From Promethearchaeota archaeon (GTDB lineage: Archaea; Asgardarchaeota; Lokiarchaeia; Sigyniarchaeales; SOKP01), in NCBI GenBank assembly GCA_016839555.1, contig JAEOUA010000005.1, positions 64,001 to 128,000 on the forward strand: a DNA stretch of 64,000 nt, in the 5' to 3' direction. Below are positions 12,672 through 64,000 of this stretch, piece after piece. The position numbers were made by a program, and so were the translations under genes. The first letter of the stretch is position 1; each line of letters opens with the position of its first letter. A model generated the notes under the pieces. That model did not search any database and had not been told where the DNA came from. It saw only the letters and a program-made list of their open reading frames with translations.

Positions 12672-13918
12672 TGAATGACAAAGATTATGAAAAGATTGAT
12701 ATCACTATTAAAAGCAATACAAAGGATATTTTTGCGTTTACTAAATTGGTACCAGACAGAATAAAGCGAATTGAAAAGGCATCTAATGAACCTTTAACAG
12801 AGGATCCGATTAATGATCTTGCACAAAAACTCCATCCAATAAGGCAACATTTAAAAATTGATCAAATTATTGATAATACCAAATCTACAAAAACATTTAG
12901 GTTAATTTCAGATTTTGAGAGAGGAACAGAACAATTAGCCTATTTCCGTGCTGGACAATATTTAAGTTTAAAAGTAGAAATCAATGATGAATGGATTACC
13001 AGACCATATTCCATCTCTTCAAGTCCAAAGGAGTCGTTAGAGGGATTTTATGATATTACAATGAAAAAAGAAGAAGATGACGGCTTTTTAACCCCCTATA
13101 TATGGGAAAATTGGAAAGTTGGCACTAAAGTGATAAGCTCTGGTCCAGAAGGCTTTATGTATTATGAACCTTTAAGAGATAAAAAGCACATTTTAGGGTT
13201 GGCAGGGGGCTCAGGTATCACACCATTTAGATCCATAGCAAAAGCTATTGCTGAAGGTGAAATTGATGCCAAACTAACGCTTATGTATGGATGTAGCGAT
13301 GAAGATGATATAATCTTTTTCGATGAATTAAAACAATTAGAAAAAGAAAATCTAGATAAAATTAAAGTAGTAATAGTTCTAAGTTGTGAAGAAGTAACTT
13401 TAAAGGGCTGTGAAACGGGTTTTCTCACAGCGGAATTGATTGATAAATATGCTGATGTCTCTAACAGTTCACTCTTCATCTGCGGCCCCCAAATTATGTA
13501 TGAGTTCGTTGAAAAAGAATTGGAGAGATTTAATTTACCTCCCAAACAAATAAGGCGAGAAGCATTTGGAGAAATTAAAAATATTTCGGCATTTAGCGGA
13601 TTTCCTAAAGATAAAATTGATAAAAATTTCAAAATTACCGTTCATATTGGTGGAATGATAAAAGAAGTACCGGCAAAATCGACCGAATCCGTATTAGTGG
13701 CTCTAGAAAGGGCCAAATTAGCCCCACCCTCTAAATGCCGATCTGGTGAATGTGGATTCTGTCGATCCTTATTACTTGATGGTGATGCATATATATCTCC
13801 TATTTCTGATTGGAGAAGGGATGCAGATAAAAAATTTAATTATATTCATACTTGTAGCTCATATCCAATTAGCGATCTTGAATTAATAATTCCTAGAAAA
13901 CAACACAGAGATTTTTAA
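12671..13918 (+). CDS. FNR-like FAD/NAD(P)H reductase with C-terminal [2Fe-2S] ferredoxin, copy 1
   Basis: FRAGQY, RPYSISS, AGGSGITP, ICGP, EAF, CRSGECGFC...C; TAATG overlap with the upstream gene. Confidence 0.9.
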   Translation: MNDKDYEKIDITIKSNTKDIFAFTKLVPDRIKRIEKASNEPLTEDPINDLAQKLHPIRQHLKIDQIIDNTKSTKTFRLISDFERGTEQLAYFRAGQYLSLKVEINDEWITRPYSISSSPKESLEGFYDITMKKEEDDGFLTPYIWENWKVGTKVISSGPEGFMYYEPLRDKKHILGLAGGSGITPFRSIAKAIAEGEIDAKLTLMYGCSDEDDIIFFDELKQLEKENLDKIKVVIVLSCEEVTLKGCETGFLTAELIDKYADVSNSSLFICGPQIMYEFVEKELERFNLPPKQIRREAFGEIKNISAFSGFPKDKIDKNFKITVHIGGMIKEVPAKSTESVLVALERAKLAPPSKCRSGECGFCRSLLLDGDAYISPISDWRRDADKKFNYIHTCSSYPISDLELIIPRKQHRDF

Positions 13919-45804: not shown

Positions 45805-46404
45805 TTAGAAAGTAAAACCCGCAGGTAATTCTGACTCTTTTGTACCCTCAGTTACAAATCTAAGATCTGTTATAGTATAAGTAGGATTTTTTGTATTAAA
45901 TATTGGGATTATATGCTTACCAATTTCAGGATCCCCAACTGCTAATACACTCATAAGAATTGTTACCACACCTTCGAATTCTACATTGATAAATTTTATG
46001 GGGAGTGGTAACGTATTAAAAGCACCTGAGCGATGAGTAATAATAAATGAGTGAATCTTAGCAGTTTTTTTAGCAATATCTGTTAAATCTATCACTGTCG
46101 TTTTTCTCAAACAATCGGGGCAATAAATTCTAAATGGTTCAAAAATAGATCCTTTTGCACCACACTTTTCATTATCACATCGGGTTGCCATTAATTTCCC
46201 TTTTGAAAGTGATTCAAAAAAGATTGCTTCACCACCATAAGAATGTATATAAGTCATATCTCTTGGATTAGTTACACCAGCTAGTTTTCCCGTATCCTTA
46301 TTAAAAATGGGTTGATTCTTTTCAATAATATGAAACTTTCCTCTAGGTTTATAATTACCATTGATAATCTCAACAAATCCTTTTTCATTTTCAGTTTTTG
46401 GCAT
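45805..46404 (-). CDS. DUF35-type Zn-ribbon/OB-fold thiolase partner
   Basis: FFESLSKGKLMATRC..C...CPDC then OB-fold; 2 nt downstream of the thiolase-like gene. Confidence 0.85.
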   Translation of the reverse strand: MPKTENEKGFVEIINGNYKPRGKFHIIEKNQPIFNKDTGKLAGVTNPRDMTYIHSYGGEAIFFESLSKGKLMATRCDNEKCGAKGSIFEPFRIYCPDCLRKTTVIDLTDIAKKTAKIHSFIITHRSGAFNTLPLPIKFINVEFEGVVTILMSVLAVGDPEIGKHIIPIFNTKNPTYTITDLRFVTEGTKESELPAGFTF

Positions 46405-46406
46405 CT

Positions 46407-47828
46407 TTAATCCTCCTTTATTAAATTATTTGGGTTCATTAATATTGTGCATGTAACATGAGAGCCGACACCAGCATGACTTATCGCAAGACCACGTTTG
46501 GCTCCTTTCACTTGTAAGCTTGTCCAATCTTTTGGCTTTTCTCTTCCAAAATCATCCCATTTCTCTTTTGGTTCATGTATTTCATCCCACCTATTCCAAA
46601 TATGGTAACCTATTTCAGCAATCTGCATTAAGCCTGTTGCTCCAACTGCATGCATACATCCGATTAATCCACCAGAAGGATTGCTTGGTAATGCACCTGG
46701 TTTATTTGTATTTGGATTAATGACATAAGCATCTCCAGATTCTATATAGTCTCGCCCTTCACCATAGGGTCTAATTCCAATGTCTTCATAAGTCTGAATA
46801 TCGCTAATAGTAAAGGCATCATGTAACTCAACCACATCAAGATCTTCTGTTGGATCGACAACACCAGCCATATGGTAAGCATAATAAGCGGCAATTCTTG
46901 CAGCGAGAAAGCTGGTGAATCCCGGGTATCTATCTCCACCAGGGAATCTTTTGCCTAAGTCATCATATTGACCTGGTTTTTCATTTGGAAGTAGTGGAAT
47001 ACTCATATCTCTTCTGTCTGCTACTCTTAATGTATGGCTGCCAGCACCAATAAAAATTCTTAATGGTTTATCGGTAATCTCATAAGCTGTTTTTTCATCA
47101 CATACAATACCACAAGCGGCACCCACACTCATTAAACAACAATCTAAAACACGAAGAGGATGAGCAACAATTGGAGAGTTTAATACATCTTCTACCGTAA
47201 TTTTCATTGGACCATGGGCATGAGGATTCATTCTCGCATATCCTCTGTTTTTTACTGCAACTTCCGCCATGGTGTTTCGGAATGAAGGTTCCTCTTTTCC
47301 GAATATTTTCCAATATCTTTGAGCCATTACTGCATAATAACCCGTATAAATATGACCTAATGGGGTTTCCCAATCTTTGTCTGCTGCTGACGCTATGAGA
47401 TGATTACCCTCATCAGTCGGCACTTCATCCATTCTTTCCCATCCTAACGCCAGAGCACAGTCACTATATCCTGAAGCTATAGCTTTTACAGCTTCCCACA
47501 TAGCAGACCCTCCTGTTGCACCACCCGTTTTTACGCCTATATTTCCTAAAGGATCTAGACCAAGTCTATCATGAATTAATGCTTCTCCAAGCAATTGATC
47601 ACCGAAATGATCGGCAAAGTGCCCATAGTAACATGTATGTATATATTGTTTCAACTCCGCCGGAGTCATGTTAACAAAATCAGCTGCAGCAGTGAAAGCT
47701 TGAATACATAACTCCTCTGTTCTTGTCTCTGGAAATGCTCTATCAAATTTGGACATACCAGCGGTTACTAAATAGACCGGTCGCATTAATTTTGGAATTT
47801 TTAATTGTTTATCTGAAAATTTAATCAT
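46407..47828 (-). CDS. SCP2-thiolase-like protein lacking the canonical nucleophilic Cys
   Basis: GWERM, VAVKN...NP.A, DCC..S.GA, VELHDAF, NPSGGL, HAVGATG; TGGATGG at the usual xCAS/TG site. Confidence 0.85.
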   Translation of the reverse strand: MIKFSDKQLKIPKLMRPVYLVTAGMSKFDRAFPETRTEELCIQAFTAAADFVNMTPAELKQYIHTCYYGHFADHFGDQLLGEALIHDRLGLDPLGNIGVKTGGATGGSAMWEAVKAIASGYSDCALALGWERMDEVPTDEGNHLIASAADKDWETPLGHIYTGYYAVMAQRYWKIFGKEEPSFRNTMAEVAVKNRGYARMNPHAHGPMKITVEDVLNSPIVAHPLRVLDCCLMSVGAACGIVCDEKTAYEITDKPLRIFIGAGSHTLRVADRRDMSIPLLPNEKPGQYDDLGKRFPGGDRYPGFTSFLAARIAAYYAYHMAGVVDPTEDLDVVELHDAFTISDIQTYEDIGIRPYGEGRDYIESGDAYVINPNTNKPGALPSNPSGGLIGCMHAVGATGLMQIAEIGYHIWNRWDEIHEPKEKWDDFGREKPKDWTSLQVKGAKRGLAISHAGVGSHVTCTILMNPNNLIKED

Positions 47829-48461: not shown

Positions 48462-50165
48462 ATGAGTCAAGAGAGATTTTGGACGAAGTCTTATGATTCT
48501 CATGTTCCTAAGACCCTCGATTATCCAAAGGATGATTTAGGTACCATTTTAAGTAGATCTATGAAAAAATTTGGTGATAGAGTTGGTTTTTACTTCATGG
48601 ATTATGAAATTCTTTTTAAAGATGTACTTAAAAACTCTCAAATATTTGCCACCTTTTTGCAAAAACATGGCTTGAAGAAGGGGGATGTCGTTGCTATCAA
48701 TATTCCTAATACTCCGCAATATCTATTTGCTCTGTATGGCACGCTCATTGCAGGGGGAACATCCACGGGATTATCTCCTCTTTTAAGTCCTGTAGAAATG
48801 GCCTATCAATTAAATGATTGTAAGGCAAAATTTGTGGTGACGATGGATATTCTCTATGAAAAGGTTTTTTCAAAGTTTTTAGATAAAGTGCCTAGTCTAA
48901 AAGTCATAGTTCCCACAAACATATCGGAATACATGGGATTCTCAGGCTTTAAAGTTTTTATGGGAAAGTTAATCGGGAAAATTCCTAAGGGAAAAATGGG
49001 ACCGTGGCCCGGCAAAACGGTGGTGCCCTTTTTAGAGGCAATGGAAACTCCTATCGATGTAAAGAAGGTAAAAATCGATGCTGAAAAAGATTTAGCTCTT
49101 ATCCAATATACGGGCGGAACTACTGGAAGACCTAAAGGCACAGAAATTACCCATTTTAATTTAGCCGCAAATATGCACCAGTTTTATGCATGGCTTGATA
49201 GGGTAGATGGAACCGATATTACACTCAGTGCCTTTCCGTATTTTCATATAGCAGGGCTATTTATTGCGTTATATTTAACCTTTATTGGCTCAACTCATGT
49301 AATAATTGCCAATCCCAGAGATACAGATCACATCATTAAGGAGATAGTCGACAAAAAAATCACGGTGTTTGGAAATGTGCCCACGCTATTTTTAATGGTT
49401 CAGAGAAATCCTAAATCAAAAGATATTCCCGATGAAACCCTAAATAACATCACATTATGGGTTAGTGGGGCGGCGCCATTCCCGGCAGAAGCAGTAAGAG
49501 ACTTTGAAAAGGAGTTCCATACGGAGAATAAGTTCGTAGAGGTTTATGGAATGACTGAATCGGCTGTCCTCGCGACAGTTAATCCTGCTAAGGGTGAGAA
49601 AAAGATTGGCAAAGTCGGTTTACCTCTGCCTGATACAGATGTGAAGATTGTAGATGTAGAAACCGGAGAAGAACTCCCAATTGGGCAACCAGGAGAAATA
49701 TTATTAAAAGGACCTCAAGTGACCAAACGCTATTATAACAAACCAGAAGCAACTGCTAAGACTTATATAGAAGGCTGGCTTCATACGGGAGATGTGGGTG
49801 TTTTTGATGAGGACGGCTATTTAACCATTGTAGATAGAACTAAGGATATGCTCAGCGTGAGTGGATTCAAAGTTTACTCTGTCCATGTTGAGGATGTATT
49901 AACTAAACATCCCGATATTCAACTTTGTGCCATAATTGGAGTTCCAAATCCTGATCGACCTGGAGCAGAAATCGTGAAAGCTATTATACAATTAAAAGAA
50001 GCAATTGAGCCTGATGATAAGACAAAAGCCTCTATTGAAAAATATGCTGAAGAAAATTTAGCAAAATATGAGATTCCAAAAATCTGGCAATTCTCAGAAG
50101 AGTTGCCAACTACCATGATCGGCAAAGTTTTAAAAAGAGCACTGCGAGAAGAAGAGAAGAAATAG
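48462..50165 (+). CDS. Long-chain-fatty-acid--CoA ligase
   Basis: QYTGGTTGRPKG, PYFH, YGMTE, WLHTGD, DRTKDM, GKVLKR. Confidence 0.92.
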   Translation: MSQERFWTKSYDSHVPKTLDYPKDDLGTILSRSMKKFGDRVGFYFMDYEILFKDVLKNSQIFATFLQKHGLKKGDVVAINIPNTPQYLFALYGTLIAGGTSTGLSPLLSPVEMAYQLNDCKAKFVVTMDILYEKVFSKFLDKVPSLKVIVPTNISEYMGFSGFKVFMGKLIGKIPKGKMGPWPGKTVVPFLEAMETPIDVKKVKIDAEKDLALIQYTGGTTGRPKGTEITHFNLAANMHQFYAWLDRVDGTDITLSAFPYFHIAGLFIALYLTFIGSTHVIIANPRDTDHIIKEIVDKKITVFGNVPTLFLMVQRNPKSKDIPDETLNNITLWVSGAAPFPAEAVRDFEKEFHTENKFVEVYGMTESAVLATVNPAKGEKKIGKVGLPLPDTDVKIVDVETGEELPIGQPGEILLKGPQVTKRYYNKPEATAKTYIEGWLHTGDVGVFDEDGYLTIVDRTKDMLSVSGFKVYSVHVEDVLTKHPDIQLCAIIGVPNPDRPGAEIVKAIIQLKEAIEPDDKTKASIEKYAEENLAKYEIPKIWQFSEELPTTMIGKVLKRALREEEKK

Positions 50166-53199: not shown

Positions 53200-54015
53200 A
53201 TGAGTATTGAAGACTTTGAAGATATCATTTATGAAAAGGAAGAGAATGGCATTTGCACAGCGATTATCTCTAAACCAGAAGCAAGAAACGCCGTGACCTA
53301 TATCAGTTTTATAGAAATCTATAAAGTATTAGAAGATATGGAAGCAGATAAGAACGCGAAAGTTCTCATCATTACTGGTGATCCTAAAGGAAATGCGTTT
53401 ACTTCTGGGGGTTATTTCAAGCCAGAAATGTTTAAAAAAATGAGGAAATATCCTGAAATTGATCTTATGGATATAGCTCAAAAAAAGTTAACGCTTAAGT
53501 TTTGGGATTTCGAAAAACCGGTCATCATGGCAATTAATGGGATGGCAATTGGTGGTGGACTTACTATGCCTTTATCATGTGGCGATTTAATCTATATGTC
53601 TGAGGATGCGTGGTTTGGTCCATATTTTGTTAAAAGGGGGATCATTCCAGAATTTTCAAGTTGTTTTCTATTACCATTCTATCTCGGGTTTCAAAAAGCG
53701 AAAGAAATCGTGTATTTTGGAAATAAAATAACAGCGCAAGAAGCATATGAGCTTGGATTAGTTAATAAAGTGCTTCCATCAGATGAATTGATTCCATTTG
53801 CAAGAGAACAAGCCTTAAACCTTATTCCCCCTAAAGCACCTTCTTTATCCATAAAACTAATGAAGAAAACCATGCATAGTTATTTTAGAGAAATCTTATC
53901 AAAAACACTCGATTTAGAAAATAGAGCACTAAGGAAAACCTTCGCGTCAAAAGACTTCAAGGAATCAATGCAGGCCCTCAAGGAAAAGAGAGATCCGTTC
54001 TTTATGGGGAAATAA
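53200..54015 (+). CDS. Crotonase-family protein, likely ECI2-type enoyl-CoA isomerase
   Basis: MAINGMAIGGG, F..RGIIPEFSS, ITAQEAYELGLVNKV; hydratase glutamates absent. Confidence 0.85.
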   Translation: MSIEDFEDIIYEKEENGICTAIISKPEARNAVTYISFIEIYKVLEDMEADKNAKVLIITGDPKGNAFTSGGYFKPEMFKKMRKYPEIDLMDIAQKKLTLKFWDFEKPVIMAINGMAIGGGLTMPLSCGDLIYMSEDAWFGPYFVKRGIIPEFSSCFLLPFYLGFQKAKEIVYFGNKITAQEAYELGLVNKVLPSDELIPFAREQALNLIPPKAPSLSIKLMKKTMHSYFREILSKTLDLENRALRKTFASKDFKESMQALKEKRDPFFMGK

Positions 54016-54244
54016 ATATATATTATGTATGTTCTAAATTGTTTATGTTTTTCTGCCAATTAGAAATAAAAAACTTGTTATTAATTAATAAATTTTCTGA
54101 TACTTACACTCAACAGGGTATAAATATTAAGGATCTCAGTATTCCTCAAAAAAATAAAACAAAAAATATTCTAAGAAAAGAAATTTTTAAATAAAAGATG
54201 ATAATTTTATTAATTAATCCAATTATGATTTTGAGGTTCTATCA

Positions 54245-55141
54245 GTGATTAGTAAAGGTATGAAAAGGGTTATAAAAATGTTAAGTAAGATGCAAAAAGA
54301 AGATATAAACAAAAGAATTGGAGAATCACGCGAAAGGTTAGAAAAATTAAGAGAATTAGTGAAATTACCTGATGACGTTAATATTGAAAATATCAATATA
54401 GAGGATATCCCCGCAGTGTGGCTAAGCCTCCCAAATTCTAATCGTGAAAATGTTATTCTGTATTTTCATGGAGGCGGTTATATTTCAGGCTCACTTAGAA
54501 CACATGATGACTTAGTTATGCGAATTTGTCGTGCATCTAAAGCCCGAGCATTAATTATTAATTATCGGCTAGCTCCTGAACATCCATATCCTGCAGCGCT
54601 AGAAGACTCTGTTAAAGCTTATAAATGGTTAATAGAAACGGAAAAAATTGCTCCTCAGAAAATAATAATCGCAGGAGATTCAAATGGAGGAGGGCTTACC
54701 ATATCAACTTTAATGAAAATAAGAGATTTAGGTATTAAACTTCCCGCAGCGGGCGTTTGTCTCTGTCCTCTGACGGACTCGGCTCTTACTGGAGAATCGA
54801 TGAAAACTAAAGCTCAAGTTGATGTGTTTTTTACCTTTTATGATTATGCATTAAGTGTGGAGTCATATGTAGGTGAAGATGATCCCAAAAATCCTTATAT
54901 ATCTCCATTATACGGGGATCTAAGCGGTTTACCCCCTCTATTAATACAAGTGGCAACTGCCGATCGGATAATGGATGATGGTATTAGAATCGCAAAAAAG
55001 GCGGAAAAAGCAGGCGTAGAAGTTTCACTTCAGGTTTGGGATGATATGATACATGTTTTTCAAGCATTTGCAGTGTGGGCACCAGAATCACAAGAAGCAA
55101 TAGAAGCTATCGGAGAATATATGTCTAAAAAATTTCTTTAA
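54245..55141 (+). CDS. HSL-family alpha/beta hydrolase (esterase/lipase)
   Basis: HGGGY, YRLAPEHPYPA, GDSNGG, SPL, MIHVF. Confidence 0.92.
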   Translation: MISKGMKRVIKMLSKMQKEDINKRIGESRERLEKLRELVKLPDDVNIENINIEDIPAVWLSLPNSNRENVILYFHGGGYISGSLRTHDDLVMRICRASKARALIINYRLAPEHPYPAALEDSVKAYKWLIETEKIAPQKIIIAGDSNGGGLTISTLMKIRDLGIKLPAAGVCLCPLTDSALTGESMKTKAQVDVFFTFYDYALSVESYVGEDDPKNPYISPLYGDLSGLPPLLIQVATADRIMDDGIRIAKKAEKAGVEVSLQVWDDMIHVFQAFAVWAPESQEAIEAIGEYMSKKFL

Positions 55142-55175
55142 AGAATAGAATCATTGCTTCTAATTTTTCTTTAAT

Positions 55176-55205
55176 ACATCCATCTTTTTAGATGGTGGGA
55201 GTAGG
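55176..55205. mobile_element. Possible decayed IS200/IS605-type end hairpin
   Basis: CCATCT-TTTT-AGATGG followed by TGGGAG; no tnpA/tnpB present. Confidence 0.25.
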
Positions 55206-55462
55206 AATTTGATCTTATGTTTTATACAAGGTATTAAAACAACACTAAAGTAATATACACAAATAAAAAACTAAGAAAATTTTAACAAGAATAAACAAAA
55301 ATATCATTTTTAGGCTAAAATCGAAACTTTTTTTTTGGATAAGGTAAGCCCGCCCCCCCCGTTAATTAATTAATATTAACAAAATCGTAATTTTAGACGA
55401 ATATATCTATTTTTATAGTCTGCTGATTATATATGATTAAAAAATAACAAGATAAGTATAAA

Positions 55463-55651
55463 TTGAAAGAATTTAAAATAAACAAATTTCTCTCTTTAAG
55501 ACGAAAAGATGATGAGACGCATATTTACGTCGCTGGGAAATGGTTTATGCAGTGCTCATTCGTGCCTCTTAATATCGAGAAACCAAATTTGGAACGATAT
55601 GCGGATGCGGAAAGCATCGATGAGATTATAGATAGATACAGCAGAACATGA
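55463..55651 (+). pseudogene. Truncated N-terminal domain of an Asgard-expanded LRR-associated family
   Basis: MKEFKINKFLSL...THIYV.G..F.QC...LNI......ESIDE pattern; stops after 62 aa. Confidence 0.6.
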
Positions 55652-56478
55652 AAAAAGCAAAGATATTCCCTTATTGTCTTTCGGGGAAATATACTTCTCT
55701 ACTTCTTTTGTGAACTCTTGCAATTCTTTAGGACCATTCAATTTTTTTTAATCTCTTTTTATGTTATTTACTATAAATTAGGATATATAAAGGAAAAATT
55801 AAATTGTAATATAAATGATATGATAAGTTACTTTTTCTTTAAATATATTGGTATAGATATATGTTTAATAGACTAGGTGATGTATAATAGGTTCCCAATA
55901 AAAGGGAAAGTTTTATATAGCATCATGTCTATTTGTTTAAAAGACAAATCAATTTTTATCGAAATAAGAAAAATAAATTTTTATCTAAACTAAAAAAATT
56001 ATTATAAAAACTATGAACTCATCTCATGAATCGAAGTTTGTTAAAAAATAGAATCCTTACTTAAATCCTTGGATTTTTGTCTTTTGGTGTTCTACGATAC
56101 GTATGTAGCGTAGAAATCTTCTTTAGTTCTCTTTGTAGTGTTTGGTTTTAAGTGGGGACCCCTATTTTTTTGCTTCTTCTTCCCATTTTTAATTATAAGA
56201 TTTCAAATTAAACCTATATATCTTTTTCTTTAAATAGAAAGATTAGTAATGCCCTATTTAAGATTTTCTTTCTAATTGAAAGAGGAATTCATTTTATTTG
56301 AATACATGTAAATTTGTCTTGAATAATGAAATGTATATAAAGTAATAAAGAATACTCTCTTAAAGATGGATTATGTTGAAACATCTATAAAATAACTATT
56401 TTAAATATTAAAAATATATCTCAGAATCTTAGATATTCTTTATATTATTATTTAGACGATATATGGGGTGATGATGAT

Positions 56479-56805
56479 TTGAACTATAAAGATCATTCAG
56501 TCTATCAATACGCAGATATAAATACTGCACTAGATGGATGTGGATATCGTAATGTGATATATGTGAAAGGTGAACATAATGGAAGTGTCTGGCAGGATTA
56601 TAGCGTATCTGCGTCATCAAGCAGCCCTGGTCGAAGCTCCTATAAAAATCCCGTAACTAATGACGAATATATTGTCTTTGTTTCTTTTCCCATTGGATCA
56701 TCTACATTTCAACAAAATCTAGCTCTCCCCTTCCTCGAAACCAATCTTCGCGATTTATCCAATTTCCTTGACCACCGGGTCTTACATAGATCTGCTTTCC
56801 TCTAA
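56479..56805 (+). CDS. Hypothetical protein or fragment
   Basis: GGTGA SD upstream; first ~73 aa protein-like; last third overlaps the convergent gene. Confidence 0.35.
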   Translation: MNYKDHSVYQYADINTALDGCGYRNVIYVKGEHNGSVWQDYSVSASSSSPGRSSYKNPVTNDEYIVFVSFPIGSSTFQQNLALPFLETNLRDLSNFLDHRVLHRSAFL

Positions 56806-57256
56806 ATTTAATATACTTAAAAGGACTATTTGGGTTTTCTCTTGCCACTATTTTTATTATTTTGGTGACAATTCCTATTAAAATTACGGAAAATACTATA
56901 GAGGCAATCACAATAGGAATCGGTGATTCAGTATATCTTGTAATTAATAAAGCCCCAATACCCAAGACCAAACCACAAATAACATTAAACACGATAGAGC
57001 CATCAGAAAATGTTAATGTAGAATGTTTTTTAGTCCAATTCTTAAATTCTCTCTCGCACTCTGCACATACAGGAACATTTACTGATTTTTTTGTAATTTT
57101 GTAACCAGAAGCCCAAAACCACCAAAATAGAATAATCAAAATAAAATAAAAACTCCATTCTGATTCGATATGTTGGAAATAGGTTGAGGAAAGTCGACCA
57201 CATTTTAGACATATAGGCGGTACAAAATCTTCTTGTTTAAAATTATAAAAACTCAT
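56702..57256 (-). CDS. Membrane protein with split Zn-ribbon
   Basis: CLKC ... PVCAEC and three hydrophobic segments. Confidence 0.75.
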   Translation of the reverse strand: MSFYNFKQEDFVPPICLKCGRLSSTYFQHIESEWSFYFILIILFWWFWASGYKITKKSVNVPVCAECEREFKNWTKKHSTLTFSDGSIVFNVICGLVLGIGALLITRYTESPIPIVIASIVFSVILIGIVTKIIKIVARENPNSPFKYIKFRGKQIYVRPGGQGNWINREDWFRGRGELDFVEM

Positions 57257-57307
57257 CTTTTTTATTCCTGTCTTATTTATAATGATATTATAAAATATAA
57301 TGTTATT

Positions 57308-57637
57308 TTATTTAAATATACCTTTTTTTCTGTGCCCTCCAGAGCCAGTAAAAATTACAATTCTTAAATGATCCACGTCTGCATTTGGATCGGGAAAGGT
57401 TTTTAATGGCCACGATGAGCATAAGGGAATGGGTCCAGCATGAAGTAATAATTGATAAGTAGTATTTGCTGTTAAATTCTGTGCATCAAAGCGCCAAAAA
57501 TATCCCCTAGTATCCATCTTTTCTCCATCGATTTCTTTCCCATCTATTCTTAATTGTGGATTAACTACGGGAATATCAAAGGAAGTCTTTATTATGAAGC
57601 GATTATGACTCGCAGAAGGGAGAATATGGGTCAGGAA
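57308..57637 (-). pseudogene. Internal fragment of an FN3-like/metallophosphoesterase-type protein
   Basis: Frame extends 40 codons upstream of the ATG at 57517 (LTHILPSASHNRFIIKTSF...) to an in-frame stop with no ATG/GTG/TTG start; NLTANTTYQL and KTFP...LRIVIFTGSGGH, then abrupt end. Confidence 0.55.
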
Positions 57638-57761
57638 TTATGAGATGCTGGTAAAATACGGCGAGGCGCTTACGGATGATAAAGTCATCCAATTGATACA
57701 GCAGTTAGAAAAGATTAATCCCCCTCCCGAAAAAAACCAGGTGAAAACCTTACGAATGTAA
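57636..57761 (+). pseudogene. Short C-terminal-like gene fragment
   Basis: NYEMLVKYGEALTDDKVIQLIQQLEKINPPPEKNQVKTLRM*; GC-richer than flanks; abuts the minus-strand fragment back-to-back with no promoter space. Confidence 0.4.
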
Positions 57762-57907
57762 GCGTGTTTTGCCAGAATAAATCTTCTCTCCTTTTTTCTT
57801 TTTTATACCTTTTTATTTAAATAACACCCTCTAATATATTAGTATAGAATAGAAAAATAAAGGTAAAAATAAAATTAATTAATCCTACAAACAAATTATT
57901 TTTTATA

Positions 57908-58351
57908 ATGTCGATAAAAGATCTTTTTGATGATATCAAAAGAGAGATGGATAGTTTAAAAATTTTACACGAGCTTTCTAAAGGAGATCCCATACCTTGG
58001 TTAGAATTATTAAACTACTCTAACTTGACTCCTCAAGAATTAAATGAATATTTGATGAAATGGAAAAAAGGAGGATTTATTTCAGAGCCAACAGAACATT
58101 CCATCCAAAAAACTTCTACATTTCACATTTTACACGAAAAAAAGCTAAGATCATTCCGCAGATTGCTTTGGGAAGCGCCAGAATTTTTTGGGCTGAACGA
58201 TACCAAGCGAAAATTTCTTAAACAAATATCGGAAAAATTACATTCAACCTCTTCAAATCTCCCACCGGATGTTATCCATAAAATTATGAGCAAAATTGAA
58301 GATATACTAGAGGATTCTTTTATATTCGAAAAAAAGGATGAGCCTGAATAA
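57908..58351 (+). CDS. Hypothetical protein with winged-helix-like N-terminal domain
   Basis: ILHEL...WLELLNYSNLTPQELNEYLMKWKKGGFI pattern. Confidence 0.6.
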   Translation: MSIKDLFDDIKREMDSLKILHELSKGDPIPWLELLNYSNLTPQELNEYLMKWKKGGFISEPTEHSIQKTSTFHILHEKKLRSFRRLLWEAPEFFGLNDTKRKFLKQISEKLHSTSSNLPPDVIHKIMSKIEDILEDSFIFEKKDEPE

Positions 58352-58602
58352 TTTCCTATAAAAACGAAATTTTTGGAGTATTCGTTCTCCTAACAAATCG
58401 CAAATCTTGTTCTGTTAATAGAATTGGTTTATCTTTATCTTTCAGACACCGACAATTATCAAGAATTACTAAAGTTTTGTAAGACTTCTAAAAAATTCTA
58501 TTATTAGTTCAATTTATTTTTTTTCTTTTACTTCTTAATTAATTTGAGAATATCTAAGAACATATCTTATAGCGATAAAATAAGATTAACTTTATATATT
58601 AT

Positions 58603-60162
58603 TTGATAGATTTATTTTCTATGGAAAAGAATAATAATGTAATTGCTTCTTATCCCGTTATAGTAGTTGGATCTGGTCTTGGAGGAATTGGCGCAGCATG
58701 TCAATTAGTATTGCGAGGAGAGGAAGTATTATTACTTGAAAAACATAATGTTCCAGGAGGATTTGCTACTTCTTTTGTCAGAGGTCGATTTGAATTTGAA
58801 GGTGCTCTTCATGAACTTAGTGATGTTGGAACGGAAGATAATAAAGGCAGCCTTTATCGTTTTCTAGAAAGATTAGGTATATTACCAGATAAATTGAAGT
58901 TTAAGCATGTACCCGAATTTTATCGAAGTGTGTTTCTTGATGGATATGATGTTACTATGCCTTTAGGTGTAGAAGAATATACTGAAAAATTAATAGAACT
59001 CTTTCCTGCAGAAAAGAAAGGAATAGAAGACTTTATGGAAATGTGTAAGGCTGTGCTTGAAGGGATAGAATATATTGCCTCAAAAGGAGGAAGATTTAAG
59101 CCTCAAGAAGTTCTAAAAGAGCATCCGTGGCTGCCACGTGTTTCTGGTATAACCTTATCAGAGCTCTATGAAAAATTTTTTACTGATAAAAAACTGATTG
59201 CATTAATTTCCCAACTCTGGGGATATATTGGGCTGCCTCCAGACAGAATAAATGCCTATGCATTTGTTGCTATGTTAATCTTTTATTTAAAGTGGGGTGC
59301 AGCATTTCCTATAGGGAGATCTCATGCATTAGTAAATGCCATGGTGGAGGCTTTTAAAAAATTCGGAGGAGAAATTCGTTATAATGCTTTAGTAAATAGA
59401 ATACTCGTGGAAAATGGTAGAGTATATGGAGTAGAATTGCTTAATGGAGATATTTATAAATGTAAGGCGGTGATTTCTAATGTCAATCCAATATGTACTG
59501 CTATGAAGATGTTACCACCAGAAGTTGTTCCAGATGAATATAAGAAAAAAATCTATGCTCCTGAGATTGGACCTTCAGGATTTTCGGTGTATATTGGCTT
59601 AAACGCATCGTATCAAGATTTAGGGTTAAATGCTCATGAAACCTTTATAAATAATAATTATGATATGAATGCCGCTTTTGAAAACTTTCATAAGTTAGAG
59701 GCACCAAAATATATAGTTGCTGCATGTTATAATCACATTTATGAAGACATCAGTCCACTTGGAACCACTGAACTGGTCTTAACCACTCTTCAAATGGGAA
59801 AACTCTGGCAAGATGTAGCTCCTGATCAATATTTTTATATTAAAGATAAAATTTCGGACAGTATGGTGTCTTTAGTGGAAAATACAATCTGTCCGGATGT
59901 CAGAGATTATATAGAAGTTGCTTTTGCTGCAACTCCATTAACCTATTATCGATATTCTAAAAATATTGAAGGTGCTATTTATGGAACCACCCAAGATGTA
60001 ACTAATGGACCAATGCTTCGATTAAAAAGTCGAGGACCCTTACCCGGACTATATCAAGTAGGAGCCTGGACAAACTTCGGTGGGGGTTTCTCTACCACAA
60101 TATTAGGGGGAAGAATCGCCTCAGGTATGTATTTGAAAGACAAAATAGAGGGGAGATGGTAG
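58603..60162 (+). CDS. Phytoene desaturase/retinol-saturase-like FAD-dependent oxidoreductase, copy 2
   Basis: IVVGSGLGG, LLEKHNVPGGFATSFVRGRFEFEGALHEL, ATPLTYYRYS...GAIYG, GLYQVGAW. Confidence 0.9.
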   Translation: MIDLFSMEKNNNVIASYPVIVVGSGLGGIGAACQLVLRGEEVLLLEKHNVPGGFATSFVRGRFEFEGALHELSDVGTEDNKGSLYRFLERLGILPDKLKFKHVPEFYRSVFLDGYDVTMPLGVEEYTEKLIELFPAEKKGIEDFMEMCKAVLEGIEYIASKGGRFKPQEVLKEHPWLPRVSGITLSELYEKFFTDKKLIALISQLWGYIGLPPDRINAYAFVAMLIFYLKWGAAFPIGRSHALVNAMVEAFKKFGGEIRYNALVNRILVENGRVYGVELLNGDIYKCKAVISNVNPICTAMKMLPPEVVPDEYKKKIYAPEIGPSGFSVYIGLNASYQDLGLNAHETFINNNYDMNAAFENFHKLEAPKYIVAACYNHIYEDISPLGTTELVLTTLQMGKLWQDVAPDQYFYIKDKISDSMVSLVENTICPDVRDYIEVAFAATPLTYYRYSKNIEGAIYGTTQDVTNGPMLRLKSRGPLPGLYQVGAWTNFGGGFSTTILGGRIASGMYLKDKIEGRW

Positions 60163-61352
60163 CTATGATGGAAGATTTAAAAAAGTATCAAAAAGCTGAA
60201 AAATTAAAAAAACAACGTGAAGAAGCACAACAAATACCATGGTATTATGATGGGTTAGAGAGATTATGTGATCGAATTCACCCGGGAAAACAACTGGTTA
60301 AAATAACCGATATTAAAGATCTCTCCTATGACACCAAATTATTTCGGTTTGTTTCCGTTAACCCAAATAAACCCCTCGCACCATTTCGTGCAGGGCAATA
60401 TATAGGATTGACTGTAGAAATTAATGGAGTACGAACTTCACGCCCTTATTCCTTAGTATCCTCACCTAATCAGCTCGCTTATTATGAATTAGGTATTAGA
60501 AAAAAGCAAGATGGATTTGTGACTCCATATTTCCTAGAAAATGCTAAAGTTGGAGACATTTTTGAAGTCACAGAACCTTTAGGAGATTTATATTATAGTC
60601 CCCTATTTCATGGAAAAAATTTAGTATTTATTGCTGGGGGATGTGGGATAACACCATTTATATCAATGTTGCGAGATATTTCCGAAAAAGCCTTATTTTT
60701 GAATGTATCCTTAATTTTTGGTTGCGTGAAAGAAAAAGATATCATCTTTAGAGATGAATTAGAAAATATAGCAGACAGAAGGTCAAATATTTCTGTAAAA
60801 TATATTCTATCTGAACCAGATCCTGACTGGAAAGGGGAATGTGGGTTTATTACAGGGGATAAGATTCTAAATGAAATTGGATTAATCAAAGATAAATACT
60901 TCTATGTAGTTGGAAATCGTCCTATGTATCAATTCATGAAAGAAGAAATGCATAAATTAGGCGTACCTCAACATAAAGTGTATTATGAGGCGTTTGGTGT
61001 CCCAGACGATATCACTCAAGTAATGGGTTGGCCAGAAGAAATTGATAAATCCAAAAAAATCAAGATTTCAGTCAAATATAGGAAATTTGGGAAGCCAGAA
61101 ACAATCGAATTTGACGCATTATGCATTGAACCACTTCTAAATAGCATAGAACGTACCAAAGAATTAGCTTTATCGATAGATAATGGATGCCGCTCGGGAC
61201 AATGTGCATTATGTAGGACAAAAATAATATCTGGAAAAGTTTTTGTCCCGCCCGAAGTCACCATCCGAGAAACAGATAGAGATTATGGATTTATCCATCC
61301 GTGCGTCTCTTACCCTTTAACTGATATCGAATTGGATTTAACTTTAACATAA
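60156..61352 (+). CDS. FNR-like reductase with C-terminal [2Fe-2S] ferredoxin, copy 2
   Basis: FRAGQY, RPYSLVSS, AGGCGITP, EAFG, CRSGQCALC...C; overlaps or abuts the upstream gene. Confidence 0.9.
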   Translation: MVAMMEDLKKYQKAEKLKKQREEAQQIPWYYDGLERLCDRIHPGKQLVKITDIKDLSYDTKLFRFVSVNPNKPLAPFRAGQYIGLTVEINGVRTSRPYSLVSSPNQLAYYELGIRKKQDGFVTPYFLENAKVGDIFEVTEPLGDLYYSPLFHGKNLVFIAGGCGITPFISMLRDISEKALFLNVSLIFGCVKEKDIIFRDELENIADRRSNISVKYILSEPDPDWKGECGFITGDKILNEIGLIKDKYFYVVGNRPMYQFMKEEMHKLGVPQHKVYYEAFGVPDDITQVMGWPEEIDKSKKIKISVKYRKFGKPETIEFDALCIEPLLNSIERTKELALSIDNGCRSGQCALCRTKIISGKVFVPPEVTIRETDRDYGFIHPCVSYPLTDIELDLTLT

Positions 61353-61430
61353 TTTTTTTAATAAAGACTTAAAAATATCAAACACTTATAAATTAAAGGA
61401 AATAATTAAATTATTTTGAAAGTGATTTAA

Positions 61431-61832
61431 ATGAAAATATTAACAAAAGAGTGGTTGGAAGCGTTTGGAAAGGCGATAAATGATAATCCTGCATATCGCG
61501 AATCCGCTGCTATGTGGGAAGGTGATATGCTATGTGTGATTGAACCTAGTGGGCCATTAGATCATGAAGTTCGATTCTTTATAGGATTATATCATGGAGA
61601 ATGTACCGGTGTTAAATTACTGAAAGAAGGTGAAGAAGTAGATACCGAATTTACACTTGCTGGGCCGTATGATAATTGGATAAAAGTTGTTAATAAAGAA
61701 TTGGACACGATCCAAGCTGTAATGTCAGGAAAGTTAAGGCTCACAGGGAATATGGCTAAATTGATGAGAGCTACAAGAGCCGCTCAAGAGATTGTAAATA
61801 GTCTCCAAAATGTTGAAACAGAATTTCTGTAA
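61431..61832 (+). CDS. SCP2 (sterol carrier protein 2-like) lipid-binding domain protein
   Basis: EWLEAF...IN, W.....ELD..QAVMSGKLRLTGNMAKLMR. Confidence 0.88.
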   Translation: MKILTKEWLEAFGKAINDNPAYRESAAMWEGDMLCVIEPSGPLDHEVRFFIGLYHGECTGVKLLKEGEEVDTEFTLAGPYDNWIKVVNKELDTIQAVMSGKLRLTGNMAKLMRATRAAQEIVNSLQNVETEFL

Positions 61833-61908
61833 TTTTATTTTTTATATAATATATTTTCTTTTTAATTTATTCAACTTAGAAAAATAATTATTTTAAAGTG
61901 ATATACAA

Positions 61909-63108
61909 ATGATGTATTTTAATAGTCCGAATATTGTATATGGAGAGGAAGCTTTAGATTTCCTCGACCAAATCGCAGGAAATAAATGTTTTATCGTCAC
62001 TGATAAAAATATTCAAGATTTAGGATATTTAAAGATTTTGACTGATAAATTAGAGAAATCGGGAAAATCATACAAAATATTCAATGAAGTCAAGCCTGAT
62101 CCAAAAGAAGAGATCGTCTTAAAATCTAAAGAGTCATGTCTATCTTATGAGCCAGATTTAATTATAGCGTTAGGAGGAGGCTCTGTAATAGATACTGCAA
62201 AAGGGACTTGGGCTATGTATGAATTTCCAGAATTTGGAATAGATGATTTACATATTTTTAACAATAAACTCTATGAATTAGGCAGAAAAGCTAAACTAAT
62301 TGTAATTCCCACTACCTCTGGAACGGGAGCGGATGCTACTTATGCCGCCATCATTTCAAGAGATAATAATGGAGTATGGCAAAAATTAATTCAAGCTCAT
62401 AGAGGATTAGTACCTGTATTCTCTATATTAGATCCTATTTTTCCTTCAGGGATGCCTGCAAATTTAACCGTGAATACTGGCTTGGATGCTTTATGCCATG
62501 CCATGGAATGCTTGATTGCTAATGGAAGAAATGAATTCAGTAATACTTTAGCTACCAAAGCAATCCAATTAGTGTTTAAATATTTACCAATTGCATATAA
62601 AGATGGAAAGAATATGGAAGCGAGAAATTATCTCCATCAAGCAGCCACTATGGCAGGATTAGCATTCGGCAATGCCAATGTGCACATTGGACATACTACT
62701 GGACACTGCTTGGGTGCCGTTTTTGAAAAGACCCACGGGAGGACAGTGGCCGTGATGCTGAAGTATGTCACACAATTTTGCTTGAATAATCCTGATAAAG
62801 ATGATCCAACAACTAGAATTTATGCCAACCTCGCAAAACAACTCGGCTGGGCGAAATGGGAGGATAATGATAAAAAAGCTGCCGATATTGTTATCAATAA
62901 ATTAGAGGAATTGTATAAAATAGTAGGTTTTTCAGATACAATTCAAGATTTGGGCATTTCAAAAGAAGACTTAGAAAAAAACCTCAATACTTTAGTTACG
63001 TTATGTTTTCAAGATGCCAGTGGTTCAATGAGTCCCAGATTACCTTCCAAAGCAGATTTTGAAAATATCTATAGATATGCCTATGAAGGTAAAGATATCG
63101 ACTTTTAA
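61909..63108 (+). CDS. Iron-containing alcohol dehydrogenase
   Basis: ALGGGSVIDTAK, IPTTSGTG, GLDALCHAME, AGLAFGN, His ligands, HG. Confidence 0.92.
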   Translation: MMYFNSPNIVYGEEALDFLDQIAGNKCFIVTDKNIQDLGYLKILTDKLEKSGKSYKIFNEVKPDPKEEIVLKSKESCLSYEPDLIIALGGGSVIDTAKGTWAMYEFPEFGIDDLHIFNNKLYELGRKAKLIVIPTTSGTGADATYAAIISRDNNGVWQKLIQAHRGLVPVFSILDPIFPSGMPANLTVNTGLDALCHAMECLIANGRNEFSNTLATKAIQLVFKYLPIAYKDGKNMEARNYLHQAATMAGLAFGNANVHIGHTTGHCLGAVFEKTHGRTVAVMLKYVTQFCLNNPDKDDPTTRIYANLAKQLGWAKWEDNDKKAADIVINKLEELYKIVGFSDTIQDLGISKEDLEKNLNTLVTLCFQDASGSMSPRLPSKADFENIYRYAYEGKDIDF

Positions 63109-63182: not shown

Positions 63183-64000
63183 TTATTTCCATTTCCATTT
63201 TGGTTTACTTTTTGTTAATCGCGCGAGAGCACCATTAATCGCATCTTTAGTTTGAAGCAATTGAGAACTGACAAGGGTCTCAAGTTCTAATCCAAGAGGA
63301 ATATCTTTTCCGTAACAATCATCAATTAATTTTTTAGCAAGTCCTATTGCAAGAGGTCCTGACTCAATTAGTTCATCTGTATACATTTTAATAATTGAAT
63401 CTAATTCTACATGAGTTTTCGCAACTCTATTAACAACCCCCAATCTATATGCTTCATTTCCATTAAACTTACGTCCAGTTAATATTATATCTTTGGCGTT
63501 TTGAATCCCACAGATTCTCACAGTGCGAATGGTACCACCCACATCAGGATTAAGTCCTAATTTAGTTTCTAACATATAGAATTGAGCTGATTCTGTACAA
63601 AATCGAAAATCACAAGCTAAAGCCAGTTCAAAACCCATCCCGAAACAATATCCATTAATTTTAGCGATTACAGGCTTTTCCATCTTTTCAATTTGTGAAA
63701 ATAATGGTTGTACTGTGGTATTCATATAGTATCGGAAGTTTCGAGGGATTCGTAAATCGGGAATTTTCCCTTCAGGATCTTTTTCTTGTCCTGTTAAAAA
63801 ATTTAAATCTATTCCAGAACTAAAAAGCTCATCTCCTCCCGTAATAATCACAACTCTCGTATTTGTGCGTTCGACTTTATTTATCGCATTTTGAAGTGCT
63901 ATCATTAAATCGTAATTTATTGCGTTTTTCTTTTCAGGCCGATTTAATTTAATAGTTGTAATGGTTTTATCTTCATTTTCTTCGATTAAAATAAGATCTT
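63183..64000 (-). CDS. Enoyl-CoA hydratase/isomerase; 5' end lies beyond the window edge
   Basis: Frame open upstream of 63905 (TIKLNRPEKKNAINYDL) to the edge; FSSGIDL, KPVIAKING, GFELALACDFR, LETKLGLNPD. Confidence 0.9.
   Translation of the reverse strand, partial: DLILIEENEDKTITTIKLNRPEKKNAINYDLMIALQNAINKVERTNTRVVIITGGDELFSSGIDLNFLTGQEKDPEGKIPDLRIPRNFRYYMNTTVQPLFSQIEKMEKPVIAKINGYCFGMGFELALACDFRFCTESAQFYMLETKLGLNPDVGGTIRTVRICGIQNAKDIILTGRKFNGNEAYRLGVVNRVAKTHVELDSIIKMYTDELIESGPLAIGLAKKLIDDCYGKDIPLGLELETLVSSQLLQTKDAINGALARLTKSKPKWKWK

Follow-up and report, generated by a model that had tools for sequence, protein, structure and literature searches.

A CrtI-like flavoprotein and its FNR-[2Fe-2S] reductase partner in a Promethearchaeota archaeon: a candidate O2-free saturase in an acyl-CoA context

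The window analysed here is a stretch of 64,000 nucleotides from a Promethearchaeota archaeon (contig JAEOUA010000005.1, positions 64,001 to 128,000; G000:C3:64001-128000), the genome of which comprises 3.7 Mb at 30% GC. Throughout, G numbers denote genomes, C numbers the contigs of genome G000, L numbers fetched loci, and P numbers protein relatives. Near the end of the window, two genes on the plus strand specify a FAD flavoprotein of the CrtI/CRTISO superfamily (58603-60162, 519 aa; Pfam Amino_oxidase/NAD_binding_8) and an FNR-type reductase (60156-61352, 398 aa), in which the Pfam domains FAD_binding_6 and NAD_binding_1 are followed by a C-terminal plant-type [2Fe-2S] domain, Fer2. This pair is referred to as copy 2. 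Another pair, copy 1, is located 47.5 kb away, also on the plus strand, and consists of a CrtI-like flavoprotein gene (11100-12671; Pfam and NCBIfam matches) and a gene for an FNR-[2Fe-2S] reductase (12671-13918; Pfam). From the comparisons described below, the pair is a CrtI-type variant equipped with an electron feed of its own, and it is uncharacterised in the literature searched.

The original prediction, made from the letters of the window, had noted the same two genes in the same order about 47 kb apart, with conserved blocks in otherwise diverged sequences. Both statements were borne out by the open reading frames (ORFs), by Pfam, and by BLASTP. Between the two copies, identity amounts to 33% for the flavoproteins (E 4e-101) and to 35% for the reductases (E 2e-73), and the blocks PGGFATSFVRGRFEFE[GA][AS]LHEL, FRAGQY, and CRSG.C..C are present in both. 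Judged from sequence, copy 1 and copy 2 are old, deeply diverged paralogues in different settings. The genes had been thought to overlap in both pairs, which is true of copy 1 (TAATG), where a Shine-Dalgarno (SD) sequence, AAGGGAGGTG, is found ahead of the reductase. In copy 2, ATG 60165 is the most probable start of the reductase; the SD sequence GAGGGGAG precedes it at a distance of 9 nt, and 2 nt separate it from the TAG stop codon of the flavoprotein gene. The apparent overlap of 7 nt is probably a gap of 2 nt, with the SD sequence lying within the upstream gene. For the copy-2 flavoprotein, ATG 58621 is the most likely start rather than 58603. An archaeal-type TATA-box-like motif, TTTATATA (58591-58598, plus strand), ends 23 nt before this ATG (about 26 nt from the centre of the box), an arrangement of the leaderless type; the motif was read from the sequence and is a consensus match only, in a genome of low GC content.

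A motif-anchored scan of one genome per species revealed at least 593 loci, 80 of which were kept for analysis. In about 70 of these 80, the FNR gene comes next after the CrtI-like gene. Adjacency was detected in Asgard archaea, Chloroflexota, Myxococcota and other 'Deltaproteobacteria', Actinomycetota, Bacillota, Mycoplasmatota, and Thermodesulfobacteriota, and the pair was also found in gut and rumen Clostridia and in Syntrophaceae. An exhaustive HMMER search yielded 9590 relatives, and domain layouts were examined among the best 150 representatives. Fourteen of these (about 9%) have a length of 851-971 aa, and all ten of the fourteen that were scanned are fusions. Seven of the fusions show the order CrtI-like, FNR, Fer2 (P0123, P0129, P0132, P0135, P0137, P0144, and P0181); P0133 contains the FNR domains with no match to Fer2, P0142 from Syntrophales has the reversed domain order, and in P0233 a non-homologous Pyr_redox_2 plus BFD-[2Fe-2S] module takes the place of the FNR module. 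The model of the fusion protein (pTM 0.91) gives a weak hint of a fixed domain arrangement. Fused forms probably exist within Asgard archaea as well; in G028 and G047 (Asgard family f19) matches to the reductase are located within open frames 875-888 aa long, several such entries having in-frame stops.

Maximum-likelihood trees of both partners were calculated for 76 pairs. The CrtI and FNR trees have 39 of 73 splits in common; of the strongly supported splits, the FNR tree reproduces 26 of 36 from the CrtI tree, and the CrtI tree 25 of 27 from the FNR tree, the sole strong conflict being the local position of locus L072. Patristic distances are correlated with r = 0.965, a value not reached in any of 1000 label permutations, and the correlation persists inside each of the three clades (r = 0.88-0.98). 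Linked genes are expected to be co-inherited, and the congruence is for this reason chiefly evidence against swapping: it mainly shows that partners were not exchanged and that the split between copy 1 and copy 2 is mirrored in both genes. Copy 2 is placed in an Asgard clade next to a bacterial clade (Chloroflexota, Myxococcota, Actinomycetota), and copy 1 in a separate deep clade with members from Syntrophaceae, Bacillota, and Mycoplasmatota. The genome harbors five CrtI-family genes and only two FNR-Fer2 genes; since each of the two is located downstream of a CrtI-like partner, the pairing is far beyond chance. An obligate partnership had been proposed, with co-phylogeny as the check, and the trees agree with it. 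Because adjacency extends over at least eight phyla, fusions occur in both orders, and the trees are congruent with no partner swapping, it is strongly supported that the CrtI-like protein and the FNR-[2Fe-2S] reductase form an obligate functional unit.

The distribution of the reductase is patchy. It was detected in 41 of 201 sampled genomes of the phylum, 30 of the 41 being among the 40 genomes sampled from the window's own family, and in most other families of this sample it was not found. Such a pattern fits an exchange with bacteria. Some loci show other arrangements. In L020, L022, and L025, two diverged CrtI-like/FNR pairs are oriented tail to tail, each closing a crotonase-containing run. 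For CrtI-like homologues of Jord- and Freyarchaeia (L041:9932-13011, L043, L044, and L047) no reductase partner was found, L043 and L044 comprising only about 1 kb after the CrtI-like gene, so that a downstream partner may lie beyond. Only the Jordarchaeia locus L041 has two tandem CrtI-like genes, with no FNR gene found in 13.9 kb, which recalls the two-subunit layout of CtmAB described below; more than 70 loci contain a single CrtI-like gene per module. More distant relatives (P0243, P0248, P0258, P0266, P0268, and P0264) include proteins with an N-terminal lipoprotein signal and four CxxCH haem motifs before the CrtI-like domain, resembling flavocytochromes, and one with a C-terminal cytochrome c3 domain after it. 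In P0264, a C-terminal 4HBT thioesterase domain is fused, which was counted for a lipid/acyl context.

The AF2 model of the copy-2 flavoprotein has a pLDDT of 96.3, and the top Foldseek matches are CrtI-type structures, 4rep (TM 0.81/0.85) and 4dgk (E 3.7e-26). The GxGxxG motif of the FAD-binding Rossmann fold is present as VVGSGLGG. According to the model, the protein belongs to the CrtI fold (PF01593) and superfamily. ESM Atlas matches bear generic names only. A family signature, PGG-x-A-[TS]-SF-x-RGR[FY]EF...LH, was recognized, and in a motif-independent alignment of 97 representatives the residues F58, R60, F65, and H70 are conserved to 90-100%. None of the curated NCBIfam cut-offs for CrtI, CrtD, CrtN, or CRTISO equivalogs was reached; the scores were 137.5 versus 238.1 bits for crtI_fam (TIGR02734), 135.4 versus 586.9 bits for carot_isom (TIGR02730), and lower for other models.

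These scores bear on two alternatives. An ordinary carotenoid or squalene desaturase of the CrtI/CrtD/HpnE type would explain the fold and the partial matches to crtI_fam, CrtD, and HpnE, which are a likeness at the family level only. This possibility is extremely unlikely: all curated cut-offs are missed and the conserved neighbours are acyl-CoA enzymes. The genome's only SQS_PSY gene (G000:C5:72409-73149) is not at the pair, but on contig C5 as the immediate neighbour of one of three additional CrtI-family genes (544, 525, and 502 aa; G000:C5:63382-73195, corresponding to L003:5382-15195), none of which has a reductase partner. Since the SQS_PSY gene is linked to CrtI paralogues that have no reductase, the role of the pair is, as far as gene arrangement tells, not in pigment or squalene synthesis. 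The C5 region is possibly a carotenoid or squalene-type cluster of this Loki archaeon. The fifth CrtI-like gene of the genome (C1:296160-297662) adjoins a crotonase gene, and an SCP2 gene is located about 4 kb away (C1:301175-301474).

The second alternative is a CRTISO-like isomerase acting on cis/trans configuration or on the position of a C=C bond of an unsaturated acyl or isoprenoid chain, in which the reductase would merely keep the FAD reduced and the crotonases would take the isomerised enoyl-CoA. Carot_isom is the best or co-best model for both copies (E 2.5e-39 and 1.5e-34), relatives carry the JGI label 'prolycopene isomerase', CRTISO requires FADred for its non-redox reaction, and two crotonase-fold genes flank the pair. 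On the other hand, a score of 135 bits is far from the cut-off of 587, and a stoichiometric, often fused reductase or, in relatives, a tetrahaem cytochrome exceeds what occasional re-reduction would demand in strict anaerobes. An isomerase therefore appears unlikely, and a net reduction of the C=C bond by the pair, as detailed below, is preferred.

In the copy-2 reductase the motifs RPYS, GGCGITP, and CRSGQCALC...HPC (C-x4-C-x2-C-x29-C) were identified; RxYS, GxGxxP, and the four cluster cysteines are kept in all three clades. Relatives in the PDB are b5 reductase, BenC, and MMOR. Since the named NCBIfam relatives, PaaE, Hcr, BenC, MmoC, and GbcB, are electron donors without exception, a donor role is predicted for this reductase, too. 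With PaaE, Hcr, and phthalate dioxygenase reductase it shares the order of FAD_binding_6, NAD_binding_1, and Fer2 as well as the motifs just mentioned, but the copy-2 protein has an extra N-terminal segment of about 45 aa, and the pair is devoid of an oxygenase or hybrid-cluster partner. No Rieske, di-iron, or hybrid-cluster Pfam family was detected over about 15 kb to each side of the pair, in a scan that covered ORFs of 110 aa or more except for a 157-aa ORF at 56479-56952 and that reached 13.8 kb into L001. A further difference concerns the CGP motif, which is replaced at window positions 60906-60914 (residues 251-253 of the reductase, FNR2) and in the orthologues of L004-L028. Among 28 Asgard copy-2 reductases, 26 read VGN[RL], two VGS, and none CGP, whereas copy 1 and the bacterial sister clade retain CGP. 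The swap may alter the use of pyridine nucleotides.

The surroundings of copy 2 are conserved to a considerable extent. Upstream on the plus strand, a gene for a FadD-like long-chain acyl-CoA ligase (48462-50165; Pfam AMP-binding, about 390 bits with NCBIfam long-chain-fatty-acid--CoA ligase models) and one for a crotonase-fold enzyme (53200-54015; Pfam ECH_1) are found, and downstream a convergent gene for a crotonase-fold enoyl-CoA hydratase/isomerase on the minus strand leaves the window (63183-64000, 274 aa in full; Pfam ECH_1). Farther upstream, the minus strand carries a thiolase-like gene (46407-47828; Pfam Thiolase_C_1/Thiolase_N) with a 199-aa gene beside it (45805-46404) that matches no Pfam family at E 1e-4; in L004-L008, thiolase-like and DUF35 genes occupy this relative position. 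Orthologues of the copy-2 flavoprotein in Promethearchaeota/Lokiarchaeota metagenome-assembled genomes (MAGs) are 85-91% identical. The FadD-like ligase is encoded upstream in 16 of 21 Asgard loci and also in seven bacterial loci; immediately upstream of the pair, 16 of 21 loci have a crotonase gene, while on the minus strand a crotonase gene is encountered no more than 5 kb downstream in 12 of 15 orthologous loci. Thiolase-like genes are nearby in 20 of 25. Just beyond the end of the window, two thiolase-like genes (L001:1159-4434; G000:C3:128158-131433) are followed by two DUF35 genes and then by genes for BKACE, two AORs, another ligase, and a second Fe-ADH. Alignments of the thiolase-like proteins, including those to 4yzo, show a nucleophile loop without Cys; 4yzo, which itself has none there, is among the nearest solved relatives together with the archaeal thiolase/DUF35 complexes (6esq/6et9), BbsB, and Ltp2. 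The conserved core around copy 2 consists of a FadD-like ligase, a crotonase, the pair itself, a second crotonase, Cys-less thiolase-like/DUF35 proteins, and BKACE.

The same set of neighbours as in Asgard copy 2 was observed in the Dehalococcoidales locus L040, with the order crotonase, 883-aa fusion, SCP2, Fe-ADH, AOR, and ligase, and in L074 from Actinomycetota. Other neighbours of bacterial pairs are acyl-CoA dehydrogenases, NMO/FabK-like enzymes, and a CoA-transferase. These comparisons support the view that copy 2 resides in a lipid/acyl-CoA context conserved in relatives and in a Dehalococcoidales bacterium. Such a block could also be read in the opposite direction, as a reversed beta-oxidation in which thiolase/DUF35 condenses, crotonase dehydrates, the pair serves as enoyl-CoA reductase, and AOR and Fe-ADH produce alcohols as an electron sink. 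All of these components are in the block, enoyl reduction driven by NAD(P)H is exergonic, and archaeal thiolase/DUF35 complexes, 6esq/6et9 among the nearest structures, are known in the condensing direction. However, the conserved block contains no 3-hydroxyacyl-CoA dehydrogenase and the thiolase-like proteins lack the Cys of the nucleophile loop. The most conserved neighbour is an ATP-spending FadD-like ligase, and acyl-CoA dehydrogenases occur in several relatives; breakdown fits better, and the synthetic direction is very unlikely. The aldolytic side-chain cleavage of steroids and bile acids (e.g. Ltp2-ChsH2; PDB 6ok1) resembles the block in its Cys-less thiolase-like and DUF35 proteins, crotonases, CoA ligase, and aldehyde-handling enzymes. 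It differs in that the nearest solved relative here is the archaeal 4yzo and no steroid-ring genes were seen, and an aldolase role would be assigned by analogy.

In the window the pair is followed by genes for a stand-alone SCP2 lipid-carrier domain protein (61431-61832, plus strand, 133 aa; Pfam SCP2) and an iron-containing alcohol dehydrogenase, Fe-ADH (61909-63108, plus strand, 399 aa; Pfam Fe-ADH and ADH_Fe_C), at distances of 78 nt (reductase to SCP2) and 76 nt (SCP2 to Fe-ADH), in line with the predicted spacing below 80 bp. SD-like sequences, AAGTGAT or GGTG, are located 5-10 nt upstream of both starts, AAGTGAT preceding the ATG of SCP2, and the same was found in the orthologues, which fits internal genes of an operon. 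The AT-rich spacers also contain T-runs and TATA-like words, features that weigh against assuming a single transcript; a sigma-70 promoter and terminator scan, a model not suited to archaea, performed no better than on shuffled sequences. The SCP2 protein scores 37 bits against a Pfam cut-off of 21.3 (PF02036), and its nearest structure is Thermus SCP2 (2cx7, E 7.5e-17, residues 1-125), from which lipid carriage is predicted. Both Pfam domains of the Fe-ADH, a member of PF00465, are above cut-off (127.8 and 135.6 bits). The enzyme is closest to the ADH domain of AdhE (NCBIfam AdhE 305 bits; PDB 3zdr, E 8e-71) and scores under every NCBIfam equivalog cut-off. A four-gene unit had been proposed, and SCP2 and Fe-ADH do follow the pair here, but this is the case in only 8 of 22 orthologous Asgard loci. 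Because of this low proportion, the upstream position of the two genes in L016, and the presence of 12 SCP2 genes in the genome, SCP2 and Fe-ADH are regarded as an optional cassette rather than as part of the core.

While the upstream crotonase gene adjoins the pair in relatives, the two are separated here by a lineage-specific insert of 4.6 kb (54016-58602). It contains a gene for a GESAG-type esterase of the hormone-sensitive-lipase family (54245-55141) and two ORFs without a family match (56702-57256 on the minus strand and 57908-58351). Tblastn with all ORFs of the orthologous loci detected no remnants of the relatives' genes in the insert, and the possibility that 55.1-58.6 kb represent a decayed second pair was rejected on the same grounds.

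Copy 1 has a different neighbourhood. Its orthologues are accompanied by conserved genes for a CDF transporter and for Ldh_2. The original prediction had assigned both copies an alcohol/ketone oxidoreductase neighbour of different fold, SDR and Fe-ADH, respectively. For copy 1 this was not confirmed, as the 523-aa gene preceding it shows sub-threshold matches to NAD_binding_10/3beta-HSD only and no NCBIfam match, and is not kept beside copy-1 orthologues. A pathway of lipid degradation by beta-oxidation, proposed for the pair as such, is supported for copy 2, by its conserved acyl-CoA context only; copy 1 lies amid transporters and Ldh_2. In an Acutalibacteraceae MAG (L068:3900-18100), a copy-1-type pair is surrounded by genes for GH92, alpha-galactosidase (melibiase), a BNR/sialidase-like protein, DUF1349, FAD_oxidored, and an MFS sugar transporter. 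There are hints that the copy-1-type branch of gut Clostridia acts on a non-lipid substrate. Two deep paralogues in different contexts of one genome suggest that the module was retargeted to different substrates.

The pair is proposed to be an NAD(P)H-driven, O2-free saturase for C=C bonds of acyl or isoprenoid chains, with a probability of roughly one half. Partnership, cofactor motifs, fold, and context come from comparison; direction of electron flow, reaction, and substrate are deduced from them. The products of both genes would form one two-component enzyme. The FAD of the FNR-type partner would take up hydride from NAD(P)H and hand on single electrons, via the [2Fe-2S] cluster at the C terminus, to the FAD in the CrtI-like subunit. 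The latter would use them to hydrogenate a C=C bond of some hydrophobic chain, similar to RetSat or FadH. Relative to NAD(P)+, alkene/alkane and alcohol/hydrocarbon couples are far more positive, by some 300 mV. Electron flow from NAD(P)H to the substrate is thus downhill, and net reduction of the C=C bond is the sensible direction; the hosts are strict anaerobes, which was counted for it as well. Since the conserved neighbours are a CoA ligase and crotonases, the substrate is expected to be a carboxylate or CoA thioester. For copy 2 it would most likely be an unsaturated long-chain or isoprenoid acid as CoA thioester, or the corresponding alcohol or aldehyde. The pair could then perform an auxiliary step, clearing a double bond in an O2-free, possibly aldolytic, route of the beta-oxidation type that would consist of the FadD-like ligase, the two crotonases, the Cys-less thiolase-like/DUF35 proteins, and BKACE. 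SCP2 might carry the greasy intermediate, and Fe-ADH and AOR might handle aldehyde or alcohol, all three being optional.

The known systems to which the pair can be compared differ from it in one or several respects, and it fits the definition of none of these families. Among described systems, the nearest in wiring is the Ctm system, to which the delta-24 steroid desaturase of Sterolibacterium is related. In Castellaniella defragrans, the limonene dehydrogenase CtmAB is accompanied by CtmE, a 2Fe-2S ferredoxin, and CtmF, an NADH:ferredoxin oxidoreductase, and downstream of the CtmAB genes, dehydrogenases for alcohols and aldehydes are encoded together with a CoA ligase (PMC4109377). A CrtI-like flavoenzyme is thus linked genetically with a [2Fe-2S] carrier as well as an NAD(P)H-type reductase for O2-free reactions on isoprenoid-like substrates, with genes for alcohol/aldehyde oxidation, CoA ligation, and beta-oxidation alongside. 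CtmA, CtmB, and both subunits of the delta-24 steroid desaturase have a covalent-flavin motif in common, G-F-[LR]-x-[NS]-[TL]-H-A (PMC11061730). By this published motif, the pair differs: the motif is absent from the window proteins, which read GGFATSFVRG with Val at the position of the His, and from all 277 of 277 collected relatives. In addition, the pair comprises one CrtI-like subunit only, its FNR-type reductase contains the ferredoxin as a fused domain and is often joined to the flavoenzyme itself, and the likely direction is reductive.

Should the pair nevertheless function in the Ctm manner, it would be an O2-independent allylic hydroxylase or desaturase of a terpenoid or alkene, initiating a route from hydrocarbon via alcohol, aldehyde, and acid to beta-oxidation. 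CtmAB are COG1233 flavoenzymes tied to a ferredoxin and a ferredoxin reductase (PMC4109377), the gene order in L040 from the fusion to the ligase parallels this sequence of reactions, and P0233 bears a Ctm-type Pyr_redox_2 plus [2Fe-2S] module. Apart from the missing His motif and the single CrtI-like gene per module, with no alpha/beta pair, electrons from such an oxidation would have to be transferred strongly uphill to NAD(P)+, and the most conserved neighbours, CoA ligase and crotonases, suggest that the substrate is a carboxylate already. A hydroxylase or desaturase of this kind is accordingly very unlikely.

In its chemistry, the proposed saturase is nearest to RetSat (all-trans-retinol 13,14-reductase) and FadH. 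RetSat and CRTISO, which represent the saturase/isomerase branch of the CrtI superfamily, share fold and superfamily with the CrtI-like protein, carot_isom being among the best models, and their reactions on isoprenoid C=C bonds need reduced flavin or represent a net reduction; the allylic-alcohol substrate of RetSat would suit an ADH neighbour. The pair differs by scores far under the cut-offs, by prokaryotic anaerobic hosts, by its dedicated electron partner, and by the acyl-CoA context. FadH, the 2,4-dienoyl-CoA reductase of E. coli (NADPH, FAD, [4Fe-4S], FMN), is an auxiliary enzyme of beta-oxidation with the same succession of NAD(P)H, flavin, Fe-S cluster, flavin, and acyl-CoA C=C bond, but the folds are unrelated, OYE plus Pyr_redox versus CrtI plus FNR/Fer2. 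The genome has an OYE-type candidate of its own (673 aa). The isoprene reductase IsrA was considered as a relative and rejected; it is GltD/NfnB-like (PF07992 plus [4Fe-4S]) and not CrtI-like.

Several points weigh against the proposed saturase. The literature searches yielded no paper on the family and no biochemical datum for any of its members. FNR-like FAD/[2Fe-2S] modules can be reversed for low-potential substrates, as in PyrK of dihydroorotate dehydrogenase B, and the same wiring would suit an isomerase, CRTISO-type enzymes using reduced FAD as a catalyst only. With VGN in place of the CGP cysteine near the nicotinamide site, NAD(P)H may not be the donor of the copy-2 reductase or may react poorly. 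Copy-1-type pairs in sugar and transport contexts indicate that the family is not restricted to lipids, SCP2 and Fe-ADH accompany a minority of the orthologous Asgard pairs, and the Fe-ADH is nearest to AdhE-type enzymes for short-chain substrates.

A more specific version of the saturase proposal is that Loki-type Asgard archaea and several anaerobic bacterial phyla with the conserved block may possess an undescribed O2-free route consuming unsaturated isoprenoid or polyene lipids, for example debris of phytol, carotenoids, or archaeal lipids. This is speculative and, in our estimate, unlikely. The acid would be activated to its CoA thioester, the CrtI-type NAD(P)H-driven saturase would remove double bonds that block beta-oxidation, and the enoyl-CoA would be hydrated by the crotonases. 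Cys-less thiolase-like/DUF35 aldolases would then cleave methyl-branched 3-hydroxyacyl-CoAs, and the resulting keto-acid and aldehyde fragments would pass to BKACE, AOR, and Fe-ADH, with SCP2 as the carrier.

The family is large, with the at least 593 loci in species-level genomes being joined by thousands of metagenomic relatives. If the saturase proposal is true, strict anaerobes would have in the pair a widespread means for the reduction or rearrangement of unactivated C=C bonds of lipids, by a carotenoid-desaturase fold with a built-in NAD(P)H/Fe-S feed. It would provide a first physiological electron-donor model for enzymes of the RetSat/CRTISO type and add an auxiliary step to anaerobic beta-oxidation. 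It would also bear on the diet of Lokiarchaeia in sediments, which might then include lipid necromass besides amino acids.

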